A stretch of 64,000 nucleotides of DNA from Candidatus Woesearchaeota archaeon (GTDB taxonomy: Archaea > Nanobdellota > Nanobdellia > Woesearchaeales > ARS49). Positions within the stretch are counted from its first letter, which is position 1. Each line of letters starts with the position of its first letter. Positions 2,632 to 50,367 of this stretch are shown in pieces. The translations under genes were made by a program, and so were the position numbers. Under the pieces are notes generated by a model that saw nothing but the letters and a program-made list of their open reading frames with translations, searched no databases and was not told where the DNA came from. The stretch is from positions 70,097 through 134,096 of the forward strand of contig QZIM01000002.1 in the NCBI GenBank assembly GCA_003599055.1, written 5' to 3'.

Positions 2632-4092
2632 TTGGAAAACTTTATAAATTGCCGTTCCGGGCAGCGTCCTATGGAAGAGAGCAGGCTCGAGGCGCTTATC
2701 AGGAGCGCATTTGAGGAAGGTGCAAGGGTTCTTGAGGCACGGGATGTGCCGTATGAGCTGCCTGCAGTGCAGATTGCAAAAGGGCTCACGAACAAGAACA
2801 TAAAGGCGGATGTTGAATCGCTCGTTCGACTTGAGCAATTGATTGCGGGCGCAGTTCCGTCTTCTGCAACAGGTCCGTTTGCAGGGTTCGCGACCGCGGT
2901 TTTCGCAGGACAGGCAGCGTACAAATTTTGGGACGGCGCAGCGTGTGCGCCATATCACGTGTTTTTGCCGGCGGTTTCTGCCTGTTTTTACGCAGTGCCA
3001 AAGAGGTATCGTTTTGATGAGGTCTTCTTTGGGCTTCTCAGTGCGGGAATTATTCTCACTTCATTAGGCAATCACAACGAGCCTGCGCTGAAGTATGCGC
3101 TGCCGGCAACGTTGGGTCTTGCTGCGCTTTCGGCAATCACGCGTTACGTTAAGGGCGGTTATTCTTCTGAGAGCAGAGCTGCGGTAGGGCAGGCAATCGA
3201 ATCTGCAAAAATGCATTTGCGGGAGCTAAAGCGAGCATCCGCTGAGCAAAGGGATGGGTATGCGCAGACGCTGACCGTTCCTCCTGCAGGCGGGCAGGCC
3301 AAAGGAAGCGGGGAGTGTAATGGGTTGTATTTGGACAGGCGCCAGCGCAGGGCGCAATTCAAGCGGCAAAGTTCTGATGAGCAGCCCGTGGTGGACCATA
3401 TTCCAAAGCACGGGTTTAAAAAGCGAAATGAGGAATCTTCAGTTGATTCTGTTGTGAGTGACTGCAGTGATGTTGAGGAAATTGGAGAGGGTGTGCCTGA
3501 GTATGACCGCTACGTGATGCATTTGAATCGCAAGTATGGTGTTTCACTTGAAACCGCATCAGCGCTTGCGGAAGAATATGGCGTAAAACGGTTCAAGCGC
3601 AATATGCAAAGGCTCAAGCGTGAGTATGATACGCGTGAGATAAAAAGAAAACTGGCGCAAGACCCTTCGCTTCTTGGGAACGGCCCGAAGAAAGAACACG
3701 CGTCCCAAGAAGGAGAGGTGGCGGACCGTGAGCTTGAATTGTACTGGCGCCTGATGCGCGCGCAAAAAATGGACCCGGAAGTTGTGCACGCGGTTCTTGT
3801 GGTCGGCTTTGGCCTTGACGGTGCGGACCCGCGCATTGCTGAGCGCTACATCAACTATGATGATTTTATGAATCGCGTAAACCGGGTCATTCCTGCGAAA
3901 ATGTCTGATGCGCAGGCTTATTTCAGGTCTTTGGTTGCTGCGGGCGTTATTTCGGAAAAGAAGCGCGGTGAAGTGGTGCGGCTTGATGCGCGCTGGCACG
4001 AGCGTGCAGGAGGCATTGAGCGGGAGTATATCAGTTACGCGCTTGAGCGGCGGAATCGGAGCGGACGGCTGCCTCGTCCGAATTCAGTTTAG
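2632..4092 (+). CDS. hypothetical protein with hydrophobic N-terminal half and charged helical C-terminal half
   Basis: Long ORF with several hydrophobic segments in the N-terminal 180 aa and K/R/E-rich helical repeats in the C-terminal part. Alternative start at 2671 (MEESR). Confidence 0.5.
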   Translation: MENFINCRSGQRPMEESRLEALIRSAFEEGARVLEARDVPYELPAVQIAKGLTNKNIKADVESLVRLEQLIAGAVPSSATGPFAGFATAVFAGQAAYKFWDGAACAPYHVFLPAVSACFYAVPKRYRFDEVFFGLLSAGIILTSLGNHNEPALKYALPATLGLAALSAITRYVKGGYSSESRAAVGQAIESAKMHLRELKRASAEQRDGYAQTLTVPPAGGQAKGSGECNGLYLDRRQRRAQFKRQSSDEQPVVDHIPKHGFKKRNEESSVDSVVSDCSDVEEIGEGVPEYDRYVMHLNRKYGVSLETASALAEEYGVKRFKRNMQRLKREYDTREIKRKLAQDPSLLGNGPKKEHASQEGEVADRELELYWRLMRAQKMDPEVVHAVLVVGFGLDGADPRIAERYINYDDFMNRVNRVIPAKMSDAQAYFRSLVAAGVISEKKRGEVVRLDARWHERAGGIEREYISYALERRNRSGRLPRPNSV

Positions 4093-5460: not shown

Positions 5461-5632
5461 TTTAAGAGAAAAATGAAAGAAAAAGTGCCAGTCAAAAGCT
5501 GGCAAAGACGGCGGCGCTGGGCGATGCTGGTTCGCCCGCCAAGCTGAGAACTTGGTGTCAGAAATGACCACGGGGTTCAAAAGCTTTGCGGTTTGGGCCG
5601 GGAGCGTGAAACTCCCCGCGCCGTCGTTCTTT
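5461..5632 (+). ncRNA. conserved structured element, copy 1 (candidate small RNA, T-tract end)
   Basis: About 170 nt that are roughly 80% identical to 6160-6330. Both copies begin tttaagagaaaaa, share an identical 53-nt core (cggggttcaaaagctttgcggtttgggccgggagcgtgaaactccccgcgccg), have complementary 5' (acggcggcg) and 3' (cgccgccgt) ends, and finish in a T-run. The shared ORF peptide does not extend beyond the core. Confidence 0.45.
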
Positions 5633-6069
5633 TACTTGTACTTTTCCTGCAGTGCATTCAAAAAGTGCGCAAAGTCCGGCGCGAGCGGATATTCCTGTAA
5701 TCGCGCAATCTGCAAATATTCAAGTTTGCTGAACCGTTCAGGCTCCTGAATTGCGGGTGTCCCGCGCTCAAGTCGCATCAAAAACTTGTACGCGACTGCT
5801 TCTTTTCCGCTTGGTATTTTGAACGGCACTTTTGCAAAGAGTTTAGGCGAAGAAAATGCAACGTCTCCCAGTTCTTCTTTTCCCTCGCGCACGGCTGCGC
5901 GTGCAAAGTCATCAATTGTTGGCGATGACGCGTCCTCGCAATCAGTTTCCTCAACTCTTCCGCCGGGTGTTTCCCAATGCGCGTGTTCCGGCCGGTACAA
6001 GAGCAGAAGCTCTTTTCGCTCGTTCACGATAAGGCAGCTGGCGAGCAGGAGTTTGCCGTTGTGTATCAT
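5632..6069 (-). CDS. NUDIX hydrolase
   Basis: Nudix box GGRVEETDCEDASSPTIDDFARAAVREGKEELG (Gx5Ex7REUxEExGU-like). Confidence 0.8.
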   Translation of the reverse strand: MIHNGKLLLASCLIVNERKELLLLYRPEHAHWETPGGRVEETDCEDASSPTIDDFARAAVREGKEELGDVAFSSPKLFAKVPFKIPSGKEAVAYKFLMRLERGTPAIQEPERFSKLEYLQIARLQEYPLAPDFAHFLNALQEKYK

Positions 6070-6159: not shown

Positions 6160-6330
6160 CTTTAAGAGAAAAAGAAGAAAGAAAGCCGCCGACGCACGTC
6201 GGCAACGGCGGCGTTGAGCAATCTGGTTGCTCGCCAAGCTGAAACCTTGGTTTCCGAAAGGATATCGGGGTTCAAAAGCTTTGCGGTTTGGGCCGGGAGC
6301 GTGAAACTCCCCGCGCCGCCGTTCTTTTTT
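6160..6330 (+). ncRNA. conserved structured element, copy 2
   Basis: Second copy of the element at 5461-5632. It lies between the NUDIX gene start and the stop of the nucleotidyltransferase gene and ends in ttcttttttt. Confidence 0.45.
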
Positions 6331-9296: not shown

Positions 9297-9333
9297 ATTT
9301 TTTTGAATAAGGTATTTATAGTTTTAATACTAC

Positions 9334-9873
9334 TTGAGTGTGATGAAGTATAAAAGTAGAAAGCAACCTTGCCGCGCGCTTGATTTGCCTGACTGGAACA
9401 AGAAAAAAGAGGCAGATAAAGACATCAGGGCTGAATTGGTGAGTTATTGTGCAGAGACCGGAAGAGCGCGGCCGATTGAACGGTTTGCTGCAGTAACCGG
9501 TTTATCTAAACGTACTGCGTCGATATACGTTGGAGGTATTTTTAGGCATGAGATTGTGAGGGGTAGCTCGACAGATTATAGGCGTGACCTTGCTCGATTT
9601 GCAATTCTGCTCGAATGCCTTGATGTTCCGCCGGAGCACGCACTCATACGGTTAATTCGGGAAAAGTATGATGCGAACTTTCCGTATCCTGTTTCTTCAC
9701 GGGCTGCTCGGTCTCAAGAAACAGTGAGTGCTCATACGAATACAATCGATGGTTTGGTAGAAACAGAAAATGAATATGAGGTTATGCTCAAATTATTGCC
9801 CGCATCCGATCAACAGCTCGTCTACCAACTCATTCAGCGTCTCTACGATGCAAGTCAAAAGAAGTCTGAGTGA
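9334..9873 (+). CDS. hypothetical protein
   Basis: Clean ORF with a helical, possibly HTH-like, N-terminal region. No firm motif. Confidence 0.45.
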   Translation: MSVMKYKSRKQPCRALDLPDWNKKKEADKDIRAELVSYCAETGRARPIERFAAVTGLSKRTASIYVGGIFRHEIVRGSSTDYRRDLARFAILLECLDVPPEHALIRLIREKYDANFPYPVSSRAARSQETVSAHTNTIDGLVETENEYEVMLKLLPASDQQLVYQLIQRLYDASQKKSE

Positions 9874-9884
9874 CTGTTCGTCTT

Positions 9885-10274
9885 TCAAATCCCGTCCTTG
9901 ATGATTTCAACACCGGGCAGTGAGTGGAAGTCAAAGTCACGGGTGATGAGCGTGCTCGATTCTTGTTGCGCGCTTGTATAGATGAGTGCGTCAATCGCTC
10001 CAAGGGAGTAGGTGTGGCCTATCTCTGCGGCATTGTTCGTGAGTGTGTGGTCGACATCAATGAATGTGCTGCGGGCTTTGATGAAATCGATAATCTGTCT
10101 GATTTTGTCATCGTTGATTTTATCACGCAGGAGTTTCCGTCGAATCTCGTAGAGCGAAAGACAGGAGGTCAGGATGATGTGCGGTCCTGTGACGAGCGCG
10201 AGCACGCGTTCGCTCTTCTCGAAGAAGTAGCCAAGCCAGGCAGAGGTGTCAAAGAAGTAACTAGAACCGGTCAT
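9885..10274 (-). CDS. vapC: PIN-domain ribonuclease (VapC toxin)
   Basis: N-terminal FFDTSAW with the first catalytic Asp, about 129 aa, conserved acidic residues later in the sequence. It overlaps the upstream small antitoxin gene. Confidence 0.75.
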   Translation of the reverse strand: MTGSSYFFDTSAWLGYFFEKSERVLALVTGPHIILTSCLSLYEIRRKLLRDKINDDKIRQIIDFIKARSTFIDVDHTLTNNAAEIGHTYSLGAIDALIYTSAQQESSTLITRDFDFHSLPGVEIIKDGI

Positions 10275-10461
10275 CCTTGTCTCGGAGGTCTCTCATAATC
10301 TCTTTCCATGATGCTTTGCCAAGCGCGCCATACATCGACTTCCGTGGCGCAGCGTTTCTCATCAGGTCCAATATCACTTCGTCGTACGATTTTGCACCCT
10401 TGGATTTGCGCATCTGCTGGAGAAGATGCAACGTTCGCTCCTGCACTTGAATCGTCGTCAT
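10261..10461 (-). CDS. vapB: VapB-type antitoxin (COG1753-like)
   Basis: 66-aa ORF (MTTIQVQERTLHLLQQMRKSKGAKSYDEVILDLM) matching the small archaeal antitoxins paired with PIN toxins. It has a 14-nt overlap with vapC. Confidence 0.55.
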   Translation of the reverse strand: MTTIQVQERTLHLLQQMRKSKGAKSYDEVILDLMRNAAPRKSMYGALGKASWKEIMRDLRDKDDRF

Positions 10462-10612
10462 AAACGCTATAGGGCTATAGCGCTATAATAATCTTTCGGA
10501 GATTGCTGCCAACTATCAATTCAGTCCTCACAATTCATCTGACGCCTGACAACCGATAACTAACAACCAACCACCAACAACCTTTAAATACTCCGTTCCG
10601 TTGACATTATAT

Positions 10613-18478: not shown

Positions 18479-18711
18479 AGCGTGCAAATCAGGCAGTCGC
18501 TTTTTAAATGTATGTGTTGAAGAAGATAAAAAGCGACTTGCCCAAGTCCTGCGTTGCGAGCCATTTTGCAGGATGGGCAAGTCAAAGCGATTGCAGCTTT
18601 ATTGTTTTAGAAGCGTATCGGTCAAAAACCGGGAAGGTTTTCAAGCGAAGCAGCAATAGTTCCCAACTTTTGAACAGCACACTCTTTAATCGCAGATTTC
18701 TTGTGTGTTGG

Positions 18712-18996
18712 ATGGAGTTGGATGAAGTAAAAAACAGGCTCAAGGAAGTCAAGAAATTTATTTTTGGCCCTCACGCGGAAGAGCAGCGGGGTGCTCGGGG
18801 CGGACCGCTCAAAGAAGTCATCCGTCATTTAACTGACCCTTCCTCTCTTCGCGAATGTTCGCTTCAAGTCGGAGCATACGGGGACACGATTTATCGCCTG
18901 GTGTTTGAATTGTCTGATGGGTTATTTATCATTCCAGTAATATTCAGGGGTGAAAAGTTATTTATAGTTACATTCATAAGGAGGTACCGAAAATGA
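18712..18996 (+). CDS. DUF4258 domain protein (toxin-like partner of DUF2283)
   Basis: GPHAEEQRGARGG...EVIRHL resembles the DUF4258 H..R..ERGI core. Its stop overlaps the start of the downstream DUF2283 gene (ATGA). Confidence 0.5.
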   Translation: MELDEVKNRLKEVKKFIFGPHAEEQRGARGGPLKEVIRHLTDPSSLRECSLQVGAYGDTIYRLVFELSDGLFIIPVIFRGEKLFIVTFIRRYRK

Positions 18997-19325
18997 AGCT
19001 ATTGCCGTATAGGGAAGACGTGGATGTTTTTTTTGTCTCAAAGGGGTATCGGAAGGGCGAGCGTTTTCTGACGAATGAACTGTTCGGTGATATCGTCCTT
19101 GATGTGTCAGACCGAAAAGAGGTGCGCGGTGTGGAGATTCTTTGCGCATCGGCGTTTTTCAATCGCGTTGGAATTGAACTTGATTTCTTGCGTCGCGTGC
19201 GTTCTGCTGAATTTGTTTTTACTAATGCGGAAGGTAATTTATCTATTTTGATCCGAATGATTGATTCAGTGGGAGTTCAAAAGTCGTGCGCTTTTCCTTT
19301 GCTTGAATTGGCTGCTTTGGCTTAG
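18993..19325 (+). CDS. DUF2283 domain protein
   Basis: The N-terminus MKLLPYREDVDVFFVS matches the DUF2283 consensus start (MKI.YD.E.D.L.I). A GGAGG RBS lies 6 nt upstream. Confidence 0.55.
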   Translation: MKLLPYREDVDVFFVSKGYRKGERFLTNELFGDIVLDVSDRKEVRGVEILCASAFFNRVGIELDFLRRVRSAEFVFTNAEGNLSILIRMIDSVGVQKSCAFPLLELAALA

Positions 19326-19945
19326 CTCGCCCGCACGGTTCTCACTGCGCCGCGGTTGCTTTGCGCAACTTTGGTATCGCCGACATAGACGATGTAATAG
19401 GCGTAGTAGTCTTTTGCGGCGGTTCCGCCGATGTACTCGTCAAAGACGTATCCTTTGGCAAAGCTGACGTAGCGGTCGCCAAAGTTGAGGGGGACGATTT
19501 CGCAGCTGATTGCGCCAATGCCGCGGCTGAGTTCTGAGCAGAGTTCGACGCGCAAATGGTCCCGTGGGTCGTCAAAGTAGGGGCCAAATGACCCGGCGAA
19601 GGTCTTGATGTCGTCATCCTCGACGCGGATGAACCGTCCTGAGTCGTAGTCTTGGTTGGAGGGGACAAGGATGTTGTTGACCCAGAAGTTGACTTCTTGG
19701 GGGAAGACTTCGCTTGCGGGGATTCCGGGCTGTTTGGGCTCGATTTCGGGCGCGCGCGGTGTTGGCGTTCCTGTCTCAGGTGATACGTCAATGCGAGGGG
19801 ATGGTTGTTCTGTTTGTTGTCCGTCATAGGTTGGCGGGGGTGGAATTGGGATGGTTCGGTATTCTGGCTGCTTTTGCGCGGCTAAGATGACCAGTACAAC
19901 AAGTGCGATTGCGAGCAAAATTCCAACGATTACTTTTTTGACCAT
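19322..19945 (-). CDS. signal-anchored Pro-rich extracellular protein
   Basis: N-terminal TM anchor (MVKKVIVGILLAIALVVLVILAA), a Pro-rich linker (IPIPPPPTYD...PRAPEIEPKQPGIP) and then a globular domain. Confidence 0.5.
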   Translation of the reverse strand: MVKKVIVGILLAIALVVLVILAAQKQPEYRTIPIPPPPTYDGQQTEQPSPRIDVSPETGTPTPRAPEIEPKQPGIPASEVFPQEVNFWVNNILVPSNQDYDSGRFIRVEDDDIKTFAGSFGPYFDDPRDHLRVELCSELSRGIGAISCEIVPLNFGDRYVSFAKGYVFDEYIGGTAAKDYYAYYIVYVGDTKVAQSNRGAVRTVRAS

Positions 19946-20724
19946 GGGACGATGAGGTTGATTCGGGCAAAATGCAGGAGGGGCACGCTGATGGCTGCGT
20001 AGACGGCAAGCGCAATTGGCGGCCGGAGCATCCAGTTGAGGGGCAAGGTGAGCGCGACAAAGGTGATGAGTGCGCTCACAAGCCACGCGGGACCTGCTTT
20101 TTTTGCCTGTTTGAATGCAAAGAGAAACGTGTTTTTAAACGTTTGGTCGTGCGAAAGAAGTGCGTAGCTTGTTTGGGCAAGATAGGCAATGATGGCTGTT
20201 GCGATGATGAAGAGCGCGCTTGCCGTTCCTGAGCTGACAACAGGGAGGATGGTGGTCGTGCTGCCTTCAAGGATGCTGTACGCAATCAGGGTTGCGAGAA
20301 GGAAGGCGAACCAAAGAAGTGTGAGCCCGATGAATTTGAGCCAAGTGCGCTTCAGTGATACGGGGTGTACGAGCGAGTGGCTAAGGTACCATATCGGCCC
20401 GCGCACAAGGAGCGTGATGCCAAGGATACCAAGGAAGAAGTAGGCAATGTTTTCCAAAAGGCGCAAATACGCGGTCATAAACGCGTCGTTTTCCGAGAGG
20501 GTTTGGTCAAGCGTGTACAGTTCCGCATCGGTTTTCTGCTGGATTTCTTCCTGCATCACTTCGCCTGCGCGAAGCGCGGCGTCTGCCGACGGGATAAAGA
20601 AGTGGTAATGCAGGTACAGGACAGAAATAAAGAAGATTGCTTCAAGCAGCAAAATGACGGGAAGCATCTTCTTGTTTTTCCAAAAGACATTCCACGATTT
20701 TGGCAGGGTTTGGGAGAGGGTCAT
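19930..20724 (-). CDS. polytopic membrane protein, hypothetical
   Basis: Six predicted TM helices. Its first 100 nt are duplicated at 21443-21543. Confidence 0.5.
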   Translation of the reverse strand: MTLSQTLPKSWNVFWKNKKMLPVILLLEAIFFISVLYLHYHFFIPSADAALRAGEVMQEEIQQKTDAELYTLDQTLSENDAFMTAYLRLLENIAYFFLGILGITLLVRGPIWYLSHSLVHPVSLKRTWLKFIGLTLLWFAFLLATLIAYSILEGSTTTILPVVSSGTASALFIIATAIIAYLAQTSYALLSHDQTFKNTFLFAFKQAKKAGPAWLVSALITFVALTLPLNWMLRPPIALAVYAAISVPLLHFARINLIVPWSKK

Positions 20725-20726
20725 GG
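20626..20726. repeat. 101-bp direct repeat, copy 1 (spans start codon of 19930..20724)
   Basis: 99 of 101 nt are identical to 21443-21543, which contains the ATG of the membrane gene overlapping the TGA of the PIN gene. Confidence 0.7.
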
Positions 20727-21119
20727 GGTAATGCGCGTTATGTTCTTGATTTGGTCAAAGTCATCATCGTAGCTTGCAATGGTGGTGATGCCATTTACTC
20801 GCATGGTTGCGAGGTGGATTGCGTCGCGGGGATTGAGATTATCATGAGTGTAAGCGTGGAGTGCTTCTTCGATGATTTGTTGTGTCGTATCAAGGAAGGC
20901 AAGGTTGCGGATATCGAGGAGGTTTCTCGCCACGTTTGCTGCGAAGGGCTTGCCTTTTTCCCGTTGCAGGGCCCACAGTGCTTCGTCGATAGTGAGAACG
21001 GACGTGGCTGCTTCTTGGTTTCCCTTGATGATGTGCATAAGGAGGCGTCTGCTCTTTTTTCCGGGTTCAGCATCATTTGCTGCTGAATTGATGAGGATAT
21101 TTGAGTCGATGTAAATCAT
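20721..21119 (-). CDS. vapC: PIN-domain ribonuclease (VapC toxin)
   Basis: MIYIDSNILIN with the first Asp, about 133 aa, acidic residues later. Start placed at the internal ATG so that it overlaps the antitoxin stop (ATGA). Confidence 0.7.
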   Translation of the reverse strand: MIYIDSNILINSAANDAEPGKKSRRLLMHIIKGNQEAATSVLTIDEALWALQREKGKPFAANVARNLLDIRNLAFLDTTQQIIEEALHAYTHDNLNPRDAIHLATMRVNGITTIASYDDDFDQIKNITRITP

Positions 21120-21358
21120 TGTTTTGCCAGGTGTTCTTCGTATTCTTTGGAAGTGTATGCTTTTTTTTGTCCGATTTCTTTTGCGCATCGTTCAAGAAAC
21201 GCAATCGGGTCCTCTGTGCGTGGCCTTGTGATGAGGATACCGTCAGGTGTTTCTTTAATGACGACGTCCTTTCCAGGGTAGAACTTGTACTCGTCTCGCA
21301 GTAGTTTTGGAATGAGCACTTGCCCTTTCGGCCCAAGTTTTACCGTGAGTTGTACCAT
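21116..21358 (-). CDS. vapB: AbrB/SpoVT-type antitoxin (VapB/MazE-like)
   Basis: LTVKLGPKGQVLIPKLLRDEY is a swapped-hairpin AbrB motif in an 80-aa protein, translationally coupled to the PIN gene. Confidence 0.65.
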   Translation of the reverse strand: MVQLTVKLGPKGQVLIPKLLRDEYKFYPGKDVVIKETPDGILITRPRTEDPIAFLERCAKEIGQKKAYTSKEYEEHLAKQ

Positions 21359-21442
21359 TTCTTACCTTGAGTTCTACTTTGTGTATTTAAATGTTTCTGT
21401 CTCCCGGGACAAAAAAGCAGAACAGGACAGGACGAGCACGGC

Positions 21443-21543
21443 AATAAAGAAGATTGCTTCAAGCAGCAAAATGACGGGAAGCATCTTCTTGTTTTTCCAA
21501 AAGACATTCCCCGATTTTGGCAGGGTTTGGGAGAGGGTTATGG
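21443..21543. repeat. 101-bp direct repeat, copy 2 (carries stop codon of giant gene)
   Basis: Second copy of 20626-20726. Here ATGA has become ATAA, which supplies the TAA stop of the 2419-aa gene. Confidence 0.7.
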
Positions 21544-24500
21544 TTGGCTCGCTTGTGCGCGCAGGTTTGTTATTGCTTCGTCAATTTCCCTGATTCTGTT
21601 TGTGATTACTATCGAAACGTGTGAAAAGACTGATCTTAGTTGTTGTTCCGTTTGCGCATCGCGTAATTGTTGGGCGACATCAGCGGTGTTTCCTGCGAAC
21701 GGTCGACTTTGTGATATGACAAGGCCTATTGTTGTTCTGAAGTTTGGTTCGGTCTGTCCGCTTGCAACAGGAGTAGTGCTGATTTCATCCAGTTGATTAA
21801 TGTGTGTGGTAAAAGTAGCCCCAACGCTGTTTATCTGCTGAATTGCTTCTGTTCGTGCAGGGTCTGCGGCGTACGCGAGTATGTTGGGGTAGGAGGGGTC
21901 TCGCCGTTGTTCGAAGTATGTTTTTTGGGCAGTAAGTTGTTGTTTGTAGTTGTCAAGTATGGTGATTGCTCTTTGTATTTTCTCAAGGCGAGATATGGTT
22001 TGAATTGATGGAGGAGGGGTGGGAGGTCTGCCGGCAGCGGCAAGTTCAAGAGATGCTTTTGCATGAGTGAGGTCTTCCATCACGAAATTCGTTGCGATGT
22101 TGTAAGATCCGACTGATTCTCGGATAATATCAATCGTTCCTGCTGTTGAGAACTCATTCTTTCGTTGGGGAAGGTTGCCTGGGTTCAACCAAACAGTAAT
22201 GGTGTCGCGTATTATGCGTGTACGTCTTGTGCTCTCGGCAACACTCGGCGCGGTCTGGTTTAATGCTTCAAGTCGGGATATGTGCTGTTCGATTACGGAC
22301 TTTTGGCGTTGGAGGACAGAAATGTATTCATCCATCTGGGTGATGGTTGTTGAGAGCAAGGGTGGACGGGTATATGCGAGAAGTTCGGTGTCACTTTTGC
22401 TCATAATCTCACTAAATCTTGCTCTGTGTATTTGTTGTTCTGCATTGAATTGGTCAATAGTGCTGATTACTCCGCTCAGTGTCTGAAGGGAGGTCGTTTG
22501 TGGTATCTGCGGCGCACTTGTCACCGGTGCTCTCTGTGCAGGACCAAGGATGCTGGTGATGAATTGTTGTGTTTTTGCTTGGAGGTCGGTTGCGAATGCT
22601 GCGGCATCAGGTGGTGCAGGGGTTATTTCGGTTCCGTTGTTTGCGCGCAAGATGACCCCGAATAGCTGGTTATTACGGTAGATGATGACTGCGTTGCGGT
22701 TAAACTCAAGGAGGGCGACGCGGTATTCGTTGTTTTCAGGGGTGCTTGCATAGATTCCTCTGCCGGCGTCGTACCTGAATTCAGTAATTTGTCCGGTGAA
22801 GTCGCGCAGGGTGATGGTGTTTGTTTGTCCGTTGTATTGCCACGCATTTGTTCCGTAAATTTGGTACACTTGTCCTGCCCGTTGTACTTGTCCTCCGAGT
22901 TGTTCGATTTGCCGTGCAGTATCAATCGTGTTGATGAGGGTTACTAATTCGCCGGTCTTTTCGCTGACTTCATCTGCGGTCGGCGCTTCGCTAAGTCCCG
23001 CTATTTGTGTGCGGATGGTGGTAAGTCTTGTTTTTGCCGTGTTTAATCGCGTTTTGTAATTGGTGAGTGTGGTGTTTGTTGTAAGCGCATTTGTCTTGTC
23101 ATTCGCATTCTGAATGTTTGGAATTGCGGTGCTGAATGCAGTGTGTGCTGTTTCAAACGGTTGTGTTTGTAATTGGTATGTTTCAAGCAGGTCATCAACA
23201 GTGCGTAGGAGCCGCAGTCGTATTTGCCTGCGTGCCGCGTCGTCTGCGGTGTCTGCGCGTGCGGCAGTGCCAAGTTCAGTGAAGGTCGTGCGCGCCTCTG
23301 CTTCTTTGCTGGCGATTGGCTGCAGGGTGTCAATGATGCGGCGAATCAGTTCGGCAACATTAGATGTTTGTGATGATTGGACTTGGCTTTGGATGCGGGG
23401 GTCTTGTTTGGTTGTGCAAATCGCGTTAAACGTGATGCTTTTGGTTACGGGTTCGTCAGTAATGGGGTCTATGCTGGTTTGTTCGGTTCTGATGCCGAAG
23501 CGGTCGGAATCTTTTGCGGTGTATGTGATGGTGAACGGTTGCGGCTGTAATTGTGCGGTTGGGTTCTCGCACGGGTTAAGGTCAGGGGTGAGTCCCCAGG
23601 AGATGAGGTATTGGCGTGTTTCTCCGGGTGCAAGGCCGATGGGTGCTTGGGGGAATTCAAGGACGATGCGGGGGATACCGACGCGTTGGTCTGTGGTTCC
23701 GGATATGGTTCCTGCGCCTGCGTACGTTATTTGTCTTTGCATAATTCCTTCGCTTGCGCCGGGGAGTTTTTGCCGTTTGCCGTTAAAGCCGTTTTCACCA
23801 ACGCCGCGCTCAGGGCTTGCATCGTAGAGTACGTAGGTTTCCCTGCGGTCGCTGTCTGCTTTGACTTCGATGATGAAGTTGAATGGTTCAGTGTGTTGTG
23901 TTCCGTCAGGTTTGAGAATGTTAACAAGGGCGATTGCGGACGCGGCGGGTTGTGCGGTTTGCGGGTTGTTCACTGAACTCCACTGGTTGATTTCTCGGTT
24001 TTGTGTTCTTCCGCTGCCGAACCAGTTTTGTGCAACGATTGGCCGCGCGCCGAAGTCTTCAAAGGACATGGTGTAATCGCCGTTTTTGAGGGTGCGAACT
24101 TCGTCTGATGAGCGCGCAACTTCCCTTCCTTGGCTGTTTTTGATGCTGTAGGAGAGGTATTTTGCTTCGGAGGGTTCTGTTTCGCTGAAGATGGTTTGGC
24201 GGACGCGTAACGTGGCAGCGACTGGTTCGTTGAGGGTGAAAACGGGTGTTGGGATATTCACGGTTGGCTGGACGGTTGCGTCAAGGAATTGGATGTTTCC
24301 TGTTTCGTCGCCAAGGACGCAGCGGAACGCAAGCGATAAGGGGTCAAAACGGCACATTGAGGGCGCGCTGCCGGGGCCGTCTGTGCTGATGGTGCACTCG
24401 TCGGTTTTTGACGTGCGGGTTTGCTTGCCGTCGTTCCACGACCAGCGAAGGTATGCCTTGTCGTAGCGGATTTGCCTATCACCGGGGGTTCCGTCCATTG

Positions 24501-27500
24501 TGATGAAGAGTTCTTTGTTTTCGATTTGCCCGTTTGCAACGTTTGTTGACAGTCCTTCCGGGTTCACCACGAGTTCTTTTGGCGTGTCGCAGTCGCATTT
24601 GCCGCGGGCAAACCCGTCGCTTTCGCGGCACTTAAAGCCGCCGCTGCATTTGAGGACGAGTTCGACGTTTTCAAGGGCTGCGCCTGCGGCGATTCCTGCG
24701 CCGAATTGGTATTGCCAGGTGACCAGGCCTGATGGTCGTGTTGCGGGGTTAAAGCCGATGAACCTGCGCGAGCAGGGGAAGAGAAGGCCGTAGCTTTCGG
24801 TGGGTACTTCTTGGATTGCAGCATCGAATGCTGCGTCAAGGTCAAGGTTCCACGTGCCGGTGAATGCGAAAAGGCAGATGGAGTGGACGAGTTTTTTCTC
24901 AACGAAGACTTGTTTGTACATACTGGTTTCGCCGTAGCGTGATTGGACTGAGCGTGAGAGTTCCGCGCCGGTTGAGGTAAGGGCGCCCATAACGTTGCCA
25001 ACGCCGCTGTATTCGAGGCGTTTGCCGCTTGGTGAGCTGAATTTTTGGGTAAAGCACGCGATTGCGTCATAGAGTAAGTCGCAGGCGTGTTGTGATACGA
25101 CTGCTTGGCAAACGCCTGATGAGCCGTCGCCCGTAAGGAGGATGGTGTTCATACAGTCTCTCACTGCGCCTAAGATGTTGCGCCAGCGTTGGAGGAATGC
25201 GATGAGTGTGGGGATGCAAATGCAGCGAAGGGAGTTGACAAGGCCGTCGCCCGGGCGGATGATGTATTCTTGGTCGGGTGTTCCGATGATTGCCATTGCC
25301 TGGTCGTAGATGTCTTGCCCGACGACCGGGCAGGTTTGGTCTGTGCCGTATCCTGCGGCGACGCAAAGGGCGTTGCGGAATCCCTGCATATCGGTGATGG
25401 TCTGTTTTTGGTAGTATTCCTCGATTTTTTCCTGGGTGAAGTAGGGTTGGATGCTGGTGCTGTCAACTTCGATTGCGTTAAGGTTTGCGTTGATGCGGTG
25501 CTGGTTGCTTGCAGGGGTGGTTCCTGCTTGGGGTGAGCGGTCGAATTCGATGGTTTCGGCGACGTAGCCCAAACGGATGTTGTATTCGCCGGTGGTCGCG
25601 GTTCCTCCTTGCGCGCTTTGCGGAATGAGGAGGAGGTAGAGTTGCTGTTCTTTTGGTGCTGCAAGGCCTGCAAGGACGCCGGTGGCTCCGCTGCCGGTAT
25701 CGCAGCACGCTTTGGCAACAGGGATGGTGTGCGGGGTTTCTTTGCCGTCGTTGTCGCAGAACCCGCCGACGGAGTTAAGGATGTTGCCGCATTCAACGCT
25801 GCCTTTGTTGGGGCCAAGGCTGATGCCTCCGGGCACGTTTGCTTTCTCTGCAGACAAACACGTGCTTTCTTCGATTTCGTTGAACGTGTCAAGTCCGAAT
25901 GCGGAAACGCCGCACGCAGAGCTCCATTCTTTCATATAGGCAAACCCGCAGCATTCAGGTGCGGCGGGGTGGAGGTCGTCGCAGTTGACTTTGCCTGAGG
26001 ATTGTGCGGAGCTTTCAAAGGGGTATGGTGCGCTGTCTGTTTGGTGGTCGCGCCATTTGAGGTAGATGTCTCGTACTTGGTTGTAGGTGAAGAAGAGTCT
26101 TGGCGGCTGTCGCAGGCGTGTTTGCTGCTGTTGTGCTGCTTGTGTTTGTCCTGCTTTTTTGATGAGTGCTGCGCAGTCAGAGCCTATCATCACTGACTCT
26201 CCTTCCTTGTAATACGTATCGCCGGTGTATTTTGCTTTTGCCGCATCGCTTGTGAGCGTGACCGGCGTGAGTCTTTGCGGTGCGTGTTGTCTCAGATAGT
26301 ATTGCAGTGATGGCGCGGAGGGGCACATGACGCGGTCGCATACCTGTCGATAGGTTTGGTCAACGAATGCGCGCCTGCGTTTTGCATCGGAACATTCATT
26401 GCAGTTTCCTTTTGCTTCGTCTTGGTCTGTTCCGCTGTATTCTTCGTTGCACGCGCCGATTGCGGCAACGTTCGGGTCGAATTTGCCTTCATCGTCAAGC
26501 GATGAGAGTACGGAATCAAACTCGCACTGGTATTTTTCGATAAAGATGGGGATGAGCGAGACTCCTTGTCCTGCAAGGCAGGTGTAGAACAAATACTTCC
26601 CGATGGTTTGGATGGGCTTAAGGACAGTGTCGATTCCTTCGATGATGCTGGTGAGAAGTTCAGAGGTGGTTTGAAGCAGTCCTTTTGGGATGTAGCGGGG
26701 AGGTATTGGGATGTCGATAGGCAGTTCAATGGAAACACACGTTCGTTGGAACTGTGTTGTTGTCTGTTCTGTTTCCTGTGTGCGGCGAACGAGCGGGTCG
26801 GTGCTGAGCGGTCCGACGGTTTCTTGGAACGGTATTTCAAGTTCGAAGAAGAGTTTCATGCAGCCAAAGCCGGGGACAAGGCAGTCTTTGAGGCGGTGTT
26901 TTGCGATTACTTCGCGCTTGGCGAACGTGGTGGCGTTGCTTGGCTCTTTTTCTTCCGCAAGTTCGGGCAGTTGTTGCCAGGGGTTGTCAATTGGCCTGAA
27001 GGTGAATTGCAGATAGCCGGTTCCTTCAGGGGTGCTTCCCCGTCCTGTTGACCGGACGCCGAGCGGGCGTTGGTTGTATGCGACAAGAGTATTATCATAA
27101 TCCTTTCGCGCTTCAGGGCCAAGTTCAAGCGGCAGTATTTTGATTTGGTTGCGGTTGATGGTCGCGCTTTGCCCGCCTTGGTATTTGTAGGTGAACGAGA
27201 GTCCGACTTGTTGGGCGCCTTGAATGAGTAATTGCGGGTTGAGGATTTCAGGGGTTGGCTTGCTGAGTTCGACCGCGATTTTTGTGCCGCTGCCGCAGAG
27301 CTGGTAGTCTATTTCTTCTTCCGAAGTTTGCGTGGTGAATCCGACGGCGTCGCTTGCGTCAAGGCGGATTTTGTTGCCCCAAACGATTTGTCCGACTGCG
27401 CGGGTTGCGTTCTTTTGGAGGGAGGTGCTGCGTTCAAGTTTGATGGGAATGCTGAACGTTCCGTCGTCTGCGGTAAGGACGGTCTTTTGCGGTTTTCCGT

Positions 27501-28797
27501 TCACGATTGCGGTGACGCTTCCTTTTTCGCTGAGTTTGCCGCGGGCAACAACGTCTGATTGGTAGGTGGGGCCGAGGTTGCGCAGGTTGGTTTCAACAAA
27601 GCGCGGCGCGCCCGTGTCGTGAATGACGCGAGATTCGACGAGCGTGACGTATCCTGCCTTGTCAACTGCCTTTACTTCGACAAGGTTTTCGCCTTGTTGG
27701 AGGGGTACGGGGACGCTGCTGCGCCCGGTCGTGAGGGTGAGGTGTTGCGGTTCTTGGCCGCAGCTGAGGCGCGCGGAAGTGACGTTGTCATTGCGCGCAG
27801 TGCCTGCAGGTATGGTGGCGGTTTCAACGTCGCTGCGGTCTCCTTCAATGCAGCCCAAGCTGACCGCGCTGACTTGGTATTGGTATGACTTTCCGGGGCT
27901 GATTGAAGTGTCAACGTACTCGTTTTTGCCGGGGACTGCGATGCGAACGCCGTCGCGATAGACGGCGTATTCAAGGATGCCGGTTATCTCGTTCCACGTG
28001 AGCGTGACTTGGCCGGTTTCGATTTTGGTTGCCTGCAGGTTGCCCGGGCGAAGAGGGGGTTCTCCTTGGGGTCGTGACGTGATGGTGATGTTGACGGGTT
28101 CGCTGACCGTGATGTTTGCAATGACGGGTTGTTGTGTTGCGGTTGGCGGGATGCTGACGTTCATGCTTGCGGGAGCAGTATCAACTTCGATTACTTGCGT
28201 TTGTGTTGCGGTTTCGTTGCCAAGGGTTGCGATGAGCGTGACGTTTTGCGGCTGCGCGCGCAGTTCTATTTCGCGAAAGAGGAAGTCTCCGCGGTCGCTC
28301 ACGGTTCTGCGCAGTTCATTGCCGTTAAGGAGCAGTTGGACGGTGGCGCCGGGCCGTGTTTTGCCGCTAACTTCAAGCCGTGGTGTTTTGCTGTAGCGAG
28401 GGAGGTTCGCGCTAACGAAGAGTTTTCCTGCGTAGAACTGTTGGGTTGGGCTGTTTTTGCAGTTTCCTGATTCATCGCAGGACGTGATGCGGTAATAATA
28501 CGGTGTTCCCTGTACGGTGGGGATGGTGATGTTGTGCGCGGTGACAAGGGCGTTGTCTGTTGTGGTGTTGTCAAGCGCGAGTGTTCGCCCAAAGGCAACT
28601 CCTCCGGTTGCGGGAATGTTGGTGGTCCACGTGATGGTGGTGCTCTCTTGGTTGAAGGTAAGGGTGATGTCGCGCAGCTCAGGGGGTGTTGCAGTGCTTG
28701 TTGTTGTCGCATTGCTTGCGTTTACGTCTTGTGCGAAGGCAAAGGGGAAACTACAGAGGAGCCAAATGAGTGCGATTGTGAGGGGTTGTTTTCTCAT
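21538..28797 (-). CDS. giant secreted surface protein (2419 aa) with fibronectin type III and beta-rich repeats
   Basis: Signal peptide MRKQPLTIALIWLLCSFPFAFAQ and an uninterrupted 7.3-kb ORF. An FN3-like segment is present (LQATKIETGQVTLTWNEITGILEYAVYRDGVRIA...YQYQVSAVSLG). The C-terminal 600 aa are Q/T/A-rich and helical. Confidence 0.8.
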   Translation of the reverse strand: MRKQPLTIALIWLLCSFPFAFAQDVNASNATTTSTATPPELRDITLTFNQESTTITWTTNIPATGGVAFGRTLALDNTTTDNALVTAHNITIPTVQGTPYYYRITSCDESGNCKNSPTQQFYAGKLFVSANLPRYSKTPRLEVSGKTRPGATVQLLLNGNELRRTVSDRGDFLFREIELRAQPQNVTLIATLGNETATQTQVIEVDTAPASMNVSIPPTATQQPVIANITVSEPVNITITSRPQGEPPLRPGNLQATKIETGQVTLTWNEITGILEYAVYRDGVRIAVPGKNEYVDTSISPGKSYQYQVSAVSLGCIEGDRSDVETATIPAGTARNDNVTSARLSCGQEPQHLTLTTGRSSVPVPLQQGENLVEVKAVDKAGYVTLVESRVIHDTGAPRFVETNLRNLGPTYQSDVVARGKLSEKGSVTAIVNGKPQKTVLTADDGTFSIPIKLERSTSLQKNATRAVGQIVWGNKIRLDASDAVGFTTQTSEEEIDYQLCGSGTKIAVELSKPTPEILNPQLLIQGAQQVGLSFTYKYQGGQSATINRNQIKILPLELGPEARKDYDNTLVAYNQRPLGVRSTGRGSTPEGTGYLQFTFRPIDNPWQQLPELAEEKEPSNATTFAKREVIAKHRLKDCLVPGFGCMKLFFELEIPFQETVGPLSTDPLVRRTQETEQTTTQFQRTCVSIELPIDIPIPPRYIPKGLLQTTSELLTSIIEGIDTVLKPIQTIGKYLFYTCLAGQGVSLIPIFIEKYQCEFDSVLSSLDDEGKFDPNVAAIGACNEEYSGTDQDEAKGNCNECSDAKRRRAFVDQTYRQVCDRVMCPSAPSLQYYLRQHAPQRLTPVTLTSDAAKAKYTGDTYYKEGESVMIGSDCAALIKKAGQTQAAQQQQTRLRQPPRLFFTYNQVRDIYLKWRDHQTDSAPYPFESSAQSSGKVNCDDLHPAAPECCGFAYMKEWSSACGVSAFGLDTFNEIEESTCLSAEKANVPGGISLGPNKGSVECGNILNSVGGFCDNDGKETPHTIPVAKACCDTGSGATGVLAGLAAPKEQQLYLLLIPQSAQGGTATTGEYNIRLGYVAETIEFDRSPQAGTTPASNQHRINANLNAIEVDSTSIQPYFTQEKIEEYYQKQTITDMQGFRNALCVAAGYGTDQTCPVVGQDIYDQAMAIIGTPDQEYIIRPGDGLVNSLRCICIPTLIAFLQRWRNILGAVRDCMNTILLTGDGSSGVCQAVVSQHACDLLYDAIACFTQKFSSPSGKRLEYSGVGNVMGALTSTGAELSRSVQSRYGETSMYKQVFVEKKLVHSICLFAFTGTWNLDLDAAFDAAIQEVPTESYGLLFPCSRRFIGFNPATRPSGLVTWQYQFGAGIAAGAALENVELVLKCSGGFKCRESDGFARGKCDCDTPKELVVNPEGLSTNVANGQIENKELFITMDGTPGDRQIRYDKAYLRWSWNDGKQTRTSKTDECTISTDGPGSAPSMCRFDPLSLAFRCVLGDETGNIQFLDATVQPTVNIPTPVFTLNEPVAATLRVRQTIFSETEPSEAKYLSYSIKNSQGREVARSSDEVRTLKNGDYTMSFEDFGARPIVAQNWFGSGRTQNREINQWSSVNNPQTAQPAASAIALVNILKPDGTQHTEPFNFIIEVKADSDRRETYVLYDASPERGVGENGFNGKRQKLPGASEGIMQRQITYAGAGTISGTTDQRVGIPRIVLEFPQAPIGLAPGETRQYLISWGLTPDLNPCENPTAQLQPQPFTITYTAKDSDRFGIRTEQTSIDPITDEPVTKSITFNAICTTKQDPRIQSQVQSSQTSNVAELIRRIIDTLQPIASKEAEARTTFTELGTAARADTADDAARRQIRLRLLRTVDDLLETYQLQTQPFETAHTAFSTAIPNIQNANDKTNALTTNTTLTNYKTRLNTAKTRLTTIRTQIAGLSEAPTADEVSEKTGELVTLINTIDTARQIEQLGGQVQRAGQVYQIYGTNAWQYNGQTNTITLRDFTGQITEFRYDAGRGIYASTPENNEYRVALLEFNRNAVIIYRNNQLFGVILRANNGTEITPAPPDAAAFATDLQAKTQQFITSILGPAQRAPVTSAPQIPQTTSLQTLSGVISTIDQFNAEQQIHRARFSEIMSKSDTELLAYTRPPLLSTTITQMDEYISVLQRQKSVIEQHISRLEALNQTAPSVAESTRRTRIIRDTITVWLNPGNLPQRKNEFSTAGTIDIIRESVGSYNIATNFVMEDLTHAKASLELAAAGRPPTPPPSIQTISRLEKIQRAITILDNYKQQLTAQKTYFEQRRDPSYPNILAYAADPARTEAIQQINSVGATFTTHINQLDEISTTPVASGQTEPNFRTTIGLVISQSRPFAGNTADVAQQLRDAQTEQQLRSVFSHVSIVITNRIREIDEAITNLRAQASQP

Positions 28798-50296: not shown

Positions 50297-50367
50297 GGGG
50301 CTATGATCTAGGGGTATGATGCGAGGTTTGGGACCTCGTCGCCGCGGTTCAATTCCGCGTAGCCCCA
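50297..50367 (+). tRNA. tRNA-Pro (anticodon UGG), no encoded CCA
   Basis: Hand-folded cloverleaf: acceptor GGGGCTA/TAGCCCC, U8, anticodon stem CGAGG/CCTCG, loop TTTGGGA (U33, anticodon TGG, G37), 4-nt variable loop, T-stem CGCGG/CCGCG with loop TTCAATT, discriminator A. The D-stem has one mismatch. Confidence 0.7.

Follow-up and report, generated by a model that had tools for sequence, protein, structure and literature searches.

Introduction

The closest described parallel to the locus reported here is "insertion with long target duplication" (Nobusato et al. 2000, Gene 259:99; Furuta, Abe & Kobayashi 2010, NAR 38:2428, PMC2853133), in which a small addiction-type module, with no other mobile element, lies between direct repeats longer than 30 bp, and both repeats align to a single-copy target in an empty-site genome. 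The length of the repeat varies from event to event, and the repeats often overlap the ends of genes. The cargo in the published cases is a restriction-modification (R-M) system. No archaeal case survived the screen of Furuta and colleagues, who proposed DNA double-strand breakage by R-M enzymes as a common property (PMC2853133); a later paper states that the mode applies to R-M systems "and other DNAs" (PMC3457768). Here we describe a predicted vapBC toxin–antitoxin (TA) cassette bracketed by a 100-nt direct repeat in Candidatus Woesearchaeota archaeon (GenBank assembly GCA_003599055.1, contig QZIM01000002.1, positions 70,097 to 134,096 of the forward strand). These 64,000 nucleotides, numbered from 1, are referred to below as the window. 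The locus shares the features just listed and is an archaeal TA example of a rarely cited mode of insertion, described to date for bacterial R-M genes.

Set beside the Furuta screen, the locus has an empty-site genome, a duplication longer than 30 bp (100 nt), an insert smaller than 20 kb and no mobility gene in or adjacent to the insert. It differs from the published cases in host, a DPANN archaeon, and in cargo, a type II vapBC made up of a PIN gene and an AbrB/MazE gene in place of R-M genes; the mode of insertion is common to both, whereas the class of cargo is not.

A second parallel is offered by the mobile type II VapBC modules (Makarova, Wolf & Koonin 2009, PMC2701414), which likewise pair a PIN protein with a DNA-binding antitoxin in two genes and have a patchy distribution; ours is found in one strain but missing from another that is nearly identical, and it sits inside an operon, for which the MNT-HEPN module inside the Thermus lysine operon is a useful comparison (PMC2701414). 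That work documents mobility but gives no insertion footprint and does not discuss flanking repeats, whereas the present locus gives the footprint at base resolution. Integrative elements at tRNA 3' ends are a third parallel, as their attL and attR direct repeats also duplicate part of a gene that stays intact, and they accrete serially, as may have happened at one locus discussed below (L103). Such elements encode an integrase and supply a fixed att sequence themselves, whereas the window locus has no recombinase and its repeat derives from the target, with a different sequence at each locus. We found no literature linking long target duplication to TA cassettes or to archaea. Repeats flanking TA loci may reportedly have been discussed by Pandey and Gerdes in 2005.

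Anatomy of the repeat-flanked cassette

We consider it probable that a vapBC cassette, horizontally acquired, was inserted at the junction of two genes in a conserved Woesearchaeota operon and that 100 nt of the target was duplicated in the process. All genes of the locus lie on the minus strand, in the order giant gene, upstream repeat copy (copy 2), TATA-like box, vapB, vapC and membrane-protein gene. The giant gene (21538..28797) encodes 2,419 amino acids with weak fn3-like matches only, and its TAA stop (21540..21538) falls within copy 2 (21444..21543). The inserted DNA proper (20727..21443) measures 717 nt, that is, the 817-nt repeat spacing minus the 100-nt repeat, and holds a promoter region, vapB and vapC. 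The TATA-like box TTTAAATA (21384..21391), about 25 nt 5' of the vapB ATG, was recognized directly in the sequence and is a putative cassette-borne archaeal promoter. The vapB gene (21116..21358) encodes an 80-aa antitoxin of the AbrB/MazE/SpoVT type (PF04014, E = 7.3e-6), and its stop overlaps the start of vapC by 4 nt (ATGA). The 132-aa PIN protein encoded by vapC (20721..21119) matches PF01850 over profile positions 1–118 of 120 (E = 1.1e-18), and its TGA overlaps the ATG of the membrane-protein gene, again as ATGA. That gene (19930..20724; 264 aa, no Pfam family) is intact, and the downstream repeat copy (copy 1, 20627..20726) comprises 2 nt and then, beginning with its ATG, 32 full codons and 2 nt of codon 33. 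Copy 2 is a remnant of the same gene start in which ATG has become ATA (21541..21539) and TGG has become GGG; the tetranucleotide that reads ATGA in copy 1 here reads ATAA, and it is the source of the giant-gene stop.

Of this anatomy, the gene layout with its flanking repeat, ATGA overlap and ATAA stop had been claimed in an earlier note on the sequence and is confirmed, save for one detail. The 101-bp repeat at 98% identity given there holds as a duplication but not in its length: the first base of the 101 is a mismatch, and the core is 100 nt (20627–20726 against 21444–21543) with 2 mismatches. A repeat finder stretches the match to 116 nt at 93%, but the 15 nt so added are identical at just nine positions. 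Past the repeat edges, local alignment detects marginal similarity on the inner side, about 35 nt into the insert beyond copy 2 (p ~ 0.006), and on the outer side there is no microhomology or longer duplication (p ~ 0.16); similarity at the edges was not used as evidence.

In the sequences covered, the repeat is not one of many. A 45-nt piece of the core has exactly two matches in the window, against zero expected from shuffles, and a 25-nt piece sought among 166 loci is found once in a related strain (L001), twice only in L012, and in none of the unrelated loci. A larger dispersed repeat family, which by the earlier note would have undone the insertion account, was therefore rejected, the repeat having two copies in the window, a single one in L001 and none in about 160 other loci. 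L012 is a separate 2,167-nt JGI contig (sample 3300007354) whose sequence matches the cassette and its two flanking copies at 100% identity, and as an independent contig identical across the region it makes mis-assembly unlikely.

The empty site and its relatives

The L001 locus is syntenic with the window and 93%–96% identical to it in DNA over ~18 kb, and lacks the cassette (the 817 bp). Its junction, CCATGACC at L001 9933–9940, has the giant-gene TGA overlapping the membrane-gene ATG (the longer junction sequence is AGCCAACCATGACCCTC). This is the empty site that the earlier note had predicted, on the view that the cassette left an insertion footprint between two genes that originally overlapped by ATGA. 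Both repeats align to the same single-copy L001 segment, copy 1 at 92 of 100 positions and copy 2 at 90 of 100. The ancestral upstream flank, AGCCAA, is common to copy 2 and L001, and the downstream flank, common to copy 1 and L001, is the ancestral continuation. So read, the flanks have the topology of a target duplication around a 717-nt insert.

Homologues of the membrane protein form six clusters only, all from Woesearchaeota, and in every relative the membrane gene directly follows the giant gene. The conserved block runs from a gene of ~690 aa through the giant gene, the membrane gene and a gene of ~205 aa to, further on, a NOG1-type GTPase. Among lineages more distant than L001, the same 4-nt overlap of giant and membrane genes, with no cassette at the junction, is seen in L002/L003, L009/L010 and L011; in L007/L008 the two genes abut, also with no cassette between them.

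L007 does carry a homologous MazE-PIN cassette elsewhere (L007 578–1254; GCA_038868995, a Woesearchaeota metagenome-assembled genome [MAG]), with a PIN 46% and an antitoxin 39% identical to those of the window. It lies at another junction of the same conserved operon neighborhood, upstream of a 676-aa gene, and has no obvious flanking repeat.

Residues 1–2096 of the giant protein are 91% identical to the L001 orthologue, and the last ~320 aa (window 21550–22510) are unmatched. The C-terminus differs in all homologues, a hypervariable module that adjoins the insertion site.

This neighborhood bears on histories other than a single insertion. The segment could have been tandemly duplicated first and foreign DNA captured later, a two-step pathway that has been put forward in the literature for similar patterns (PMC3457768), or the arrangement could have been imported by homologous recombination from a carrier, perhaps along with the divergent C-terminus of the giant gene. 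Beside copy 2, ~1 kb of that gene fails to align to L001, so that a recombination tract ending here is conceivable. However, identity decays gradually toward that C-terminus, with no step, in a region that is hypervariable in all homologues, and the mismatches in the membrane gene mark no clear tract boundary. The intermediate of the two-step pathway, a duplication without an insert, is seen in no relative; the earlier note had named just such a duplication as grounds for abandoning its interpretation. Import would in any case merely shift the original insertion to another genome. We regard either history as improbable, and co-import of the cassette with the giant-gene C-terminus was rejected for want of a clear recombination tract.

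A second cassette at the same junction

One relative has been entered at the same place by something else. In L004/L005 (GCA_016203305; membrane protein 48% identical), a 65-aa PF02697-type VapB and a 120-aa PIN lie between the giant-like gene and the membrane gene. Descent of this cassette and that of the window from one shared ancestral insertion was considered and rejected, given that the antitoxins belong to different, unrelated families and identity between the PINs is 25%. Immediately beyond the stop of its giant-like gene, L004 reads TAACCATCTCCCAAACTCTTCCCAAAATCG, a region that forms a decayed duplicate of ~50 nt and aligns with the start of every orthologous membrane gene; the L004 PIN stop likewise falls at the start of the downstream copy. 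Two unrelated cassettes thus entered this junction independently, and in each case the start of the membrane gene was duplicated.

Polarity and age of the duplication

Within the 100-nt core, copy 1 has eight differences from L001 and copy 2 has ten, whereas the copies are unlike each other at two positions. The eight lineage-specific differences from L001 are common to both copies, and both differences between the copies are private to copy 2. Since the copies differ at 2 positions against 8–10 from L001, the duplication took place within the lineage of the window after its split from L001, barring gene conversion.

The opposite polarity would make the cassette and duplication ancestral, with L001 and the other relatives having lost the cassette by recombination between the repeats. 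Such a deletion is precise and would leave no trace at the ATGA junction, the weak similarity ~35 nt into the insert might mark a longer duplicate of greater age that has since decayed, and L004/L005 also hold a cassette at this junction. The L004 cassette is, however, a different and unrelated module, and five other lineages are without a cassette, so that several independent losses would be needed. Ad hoc gene conversion would also be required to account for the 2 differences between copies against 8–10 from L001, with all eight lineage changes in common. Insertion is far more parsimonious than loss because of the identity of the repeats and the five cassette-free lineages, and we think ancestral presence followed by loss very unlikely.

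The fate of the remnant start in copy 2 is suggestive. A single G-to-A change turned ATG into ATA and TGA into TAA. At ATGA, only two single-base changes remove ATG, GTG or TTG and yet keep the giant-gene stop, this G to A being one and an A-to-C change of the first base the other. Under uniform mutation, a pair of substitutions in 100 nt would include exactly this G to A with a probability of <1%, which suggests selection against expression of a 55-codon signal-anchor fragment from the remnant.

Integrity and origin of the cassette

The cassette has the features of a type II VapBC, with a PIN protein bearing the acidic residues and a small gene for a DNA-binding antitoxin directly upstream and overlapping it, and is predicted to be a vapBC module with an AbrB/MazE antitoxin and a PIN RNase toxin. 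Residues D5, E46, D99 and D118 of the PIN are conserved and invariant with respect to the L007 homologue. The D..F..I motif is followed by a tail of 8 aa, which is also the modal value for 107 members of the family, and the toxin is therefore complete, at full length. Its last codon, CCA, and its TGA stop are supplied by repeat copy 1, that is, by target sequence, and the right-hand joint lies inside the last one or two PIN codons. A downstream open reading frame (ORF) with a start that overlaps or abuts the PIN stop is rare in the family (3 of 129 members). Translational coupling of a PIN gene within an operon is thus unusual, and here it was probably favored by selection, since in every relative the membrane gene is coupled to the gene before it.

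No recombinase, integrase or transposase is present in the insert, the neighboring genes have no such Pfam matches, and no inverted repeats were found in 19000–23000. Searches for a donor copy were also negative: a protein search returned the self-hit alone, scans of GTDB genomes and JGI metagenomes yielded cassette relatives at best <=48% identical, and viral contigs and plasmids gave no matches.

Recurrence around the PIN family

We collected 152 loci with relatives of the window PIN from GTDB genomes and JGI metagenomes, and at each looked for similarity between the sequence preceding the antitoxin gene and that from the PIN stop onward, using a cut-off of >=40 bits. Bracketing direct repeats were found at 11 of 105 non-redundant testable loci, compared to 1/105 for the inverted orientation and 2/142 for "virtual cassettes" shifted by 1.7 kb (Fisher p = 0.0025). 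Removing a case of tandem paralogues (L155) and a duplicate locus (L126) leaves 9/103 (p = 0.0096). The repeats are unrelated in sequence from locus to locus and range from 22 to 338 nt. In quantitative terms, these counts hint that such footprints are frequent at loci of this PIN family.

Several of these loci recall the window. In L051 (Altiarchaeales) a 124-nt repeat comprises the promoter and first 14 nt of Nop10, with the truncated remnant start upstream; in L039 (Acidobacteria) the repeat is 89 nt of intergenic sequence upstream of an ABC-F gene; and in L044 (ANME-2c) it consists of the 3' end of a cohesin/dockerin gene and the sequence after it. L136/L126 has an rfbB-like gene that is intact and, on the far side of the cassette, another copy of it that is partial (its 3' part) and decayed. 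L103 holds one gene end in triplicate, with a HicB-like plus MazE-PIN module and a Fic/Doc module lying between the copies, which suggests serial insertions at a single site.

The wider surroundings in L103 (1397–4800) form a TA island, in which a MazE-PIN pair, a HicB-like gene with a MazE-PIN pair, and a Fic/Doc gene are interspersed among the three copies, each of them the 3' end of a single membrane-protein gene.

Direct repeats border many integrated elements, and the use of one junction twice (window and L004), together with the serial insertions at L103, resembles a preferred attachment site. One might then take the repeats for attL/attR, attC-type or MITE-type ends of an element mobilized by a recombinase in trans. 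Yet neither the insert nor the adjacent genes encode an integrase or transposase, 19000–23000 lacks inverted repeats, and the repeats are target sequence, single-copy in the empty site, unrelated between loci and variable in length from 22 to 338 nt. Site-specific or transposase-driven mobility is accordingly an explanation to which we give almost no credence.

Flanking duplication is not universal among TA cassettes. The window has a second vapBC, at 9304–10578, which was set aside as a further example, there being no long repeat at its flanks. This stretch of ~1.27 kb is absent from L001 and has been put into a divergent intergenic region with no long flanking duplication; it encodes a 66-aa antitoxin (10461..10261) like the VapB of L004, a PIN (10274..9885; PF01850) and a 179-aa ORF on the opposite strand. 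In L058, from an Archaeoglobaceae MAG, a PIN cassette lies within a perfect 105-nt inverted repeat (2449–2553 and 3409–3513), a transposon-like arrangement reminiscent of R-M units in Furuta et al. 2010 that have long inverted repeats on either side.

Other features of the window

A second direct repeat of ~100 nt, at 5534–5633 and 6229–6328, is 90% identical with its copies 695 bp apart, and weaker similarity between the copies continues as far as ~5461 and ~6161. It brackets a NUDIX hydrolase gene (5632..6069, minus strand; PF00293), and each copy lies directly 3' of a gene stop, has a hairpin-rich look and gives no Rfam match. This region, which separates a nucleotidyltransferase gene from Dus, varies among relatives. 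The repeat could stem from a further target-duplication insertion, in this case of non-TA cargo, or from duplication of a structured element; the relatives offered no single-copy empty site for it, and it was on that ground set aside as a further example.

A tRNA-Pro(TGG) gene (50297–50367) is followed by three further copies of its 3' end (GAGTTCAATTCCGCGTAGCCCCA) in tandem units of ~100 nt, extending to 50699. Only the first unit is called as a tRNA by ARAGORN and Rfam, and the others may have been left by successive integrations at the tRNA gene or may form an unusual tandem repeat. Window 18480–19321 is a strain-specific replacement, in place of which L001 has ~1 kb of unrelated sequence. 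Its two overlapping plus-strand ORFs, of 162 and 110 aa, have no Pfam match and are possibly another small two-gene module.

Proposed mechanism

The comparisons show the anatomy, the empty site, insertion as against loss, the recent age of the event and its recurrence elsewhere. Foreign DNA carrying a vapBC with its own putative promoter joined the chromosome, and 100 nt of target was duplicated, beginning 2 nt ahead of the ATGA and reaching codon 33 of the membrane gene. The giant gene now ends in the upstream copy and the membrane gene starts in the downstream copy, with its ATG overlapping the toxin stop. Neither neighbor is broken because the duplicated segment holds both the stop of the upstream gene and the start of the downstream gene, and translational coupling is kept because the membrane-gene ATG now overlaps the stop of the toxin. 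The joining itself was probably the work of host processes, either break repair or template switching; its right-hand joint would lie at the stop codon that insert and target share, and no transposase or integrase would have taken part. Selection may then have retained an event that spared both neighbors and the stop/start coupling, and later silenced the remnant start by G to A. A repeat-flanked insert would ordinarily be open to deletion through recombination between its repeats; this one may persist since such a deletion would free the stable toxin.

A number of points count against this account. The polarity is argued from parsimony and repeat identity; gene conversion could make an old duplication seem young, and deletion between repeats would leave a scarless "empty site". 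Selection on the ATG-to-ATA change is suggested by just two substitutions. No donor copy with which to compare the junctions was found in the searches described above. The molecular route is one that we infer, and stabilization by addiction likewise goes beyond what was observed. The other loci of the family were read as target duplications by their anatomy alone, and the window is the one locus with an empty-site comparator.

Significance

The movement of TA cassettes within chromosomes is poorly documented, and reviews cite "mobility" without a footprint. The base-resolution before-and-after pair described here indicates that a vapBC can enter the middle of an operon and spare both neighbors by duplicating their stop/start junction. 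A PIN RNase cannot cut DNA, and for this reason DNA cleavage encoded by the cargo would seem not to be required for this mode of insertion; the published idea that such cleavage is the driver is weakened by the TA case. With bracketing repeats enriched in the PIN family (~10% versus ~1%), the question can be put to the test on a large scale.

Small addiction modules, both TA and R-M, may quite generally enter archaeal and bacterial chromosomes through long target duplication and without a recombinase, a generalization that we offer tentatively and consider possible rather than likely. Its common denominator would be a host break-repair or template-switch joining that duplicates 20–340 nt, often at gene boundaries, together with retention of the insert since repeat-mediated deletion triggers post-segregational toxicity. 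If this is true, repeated hits at one junction, as in the window and L004 or in the triple copy of L103, would point to sites, either fragile or tolerated, where TA islands build up.

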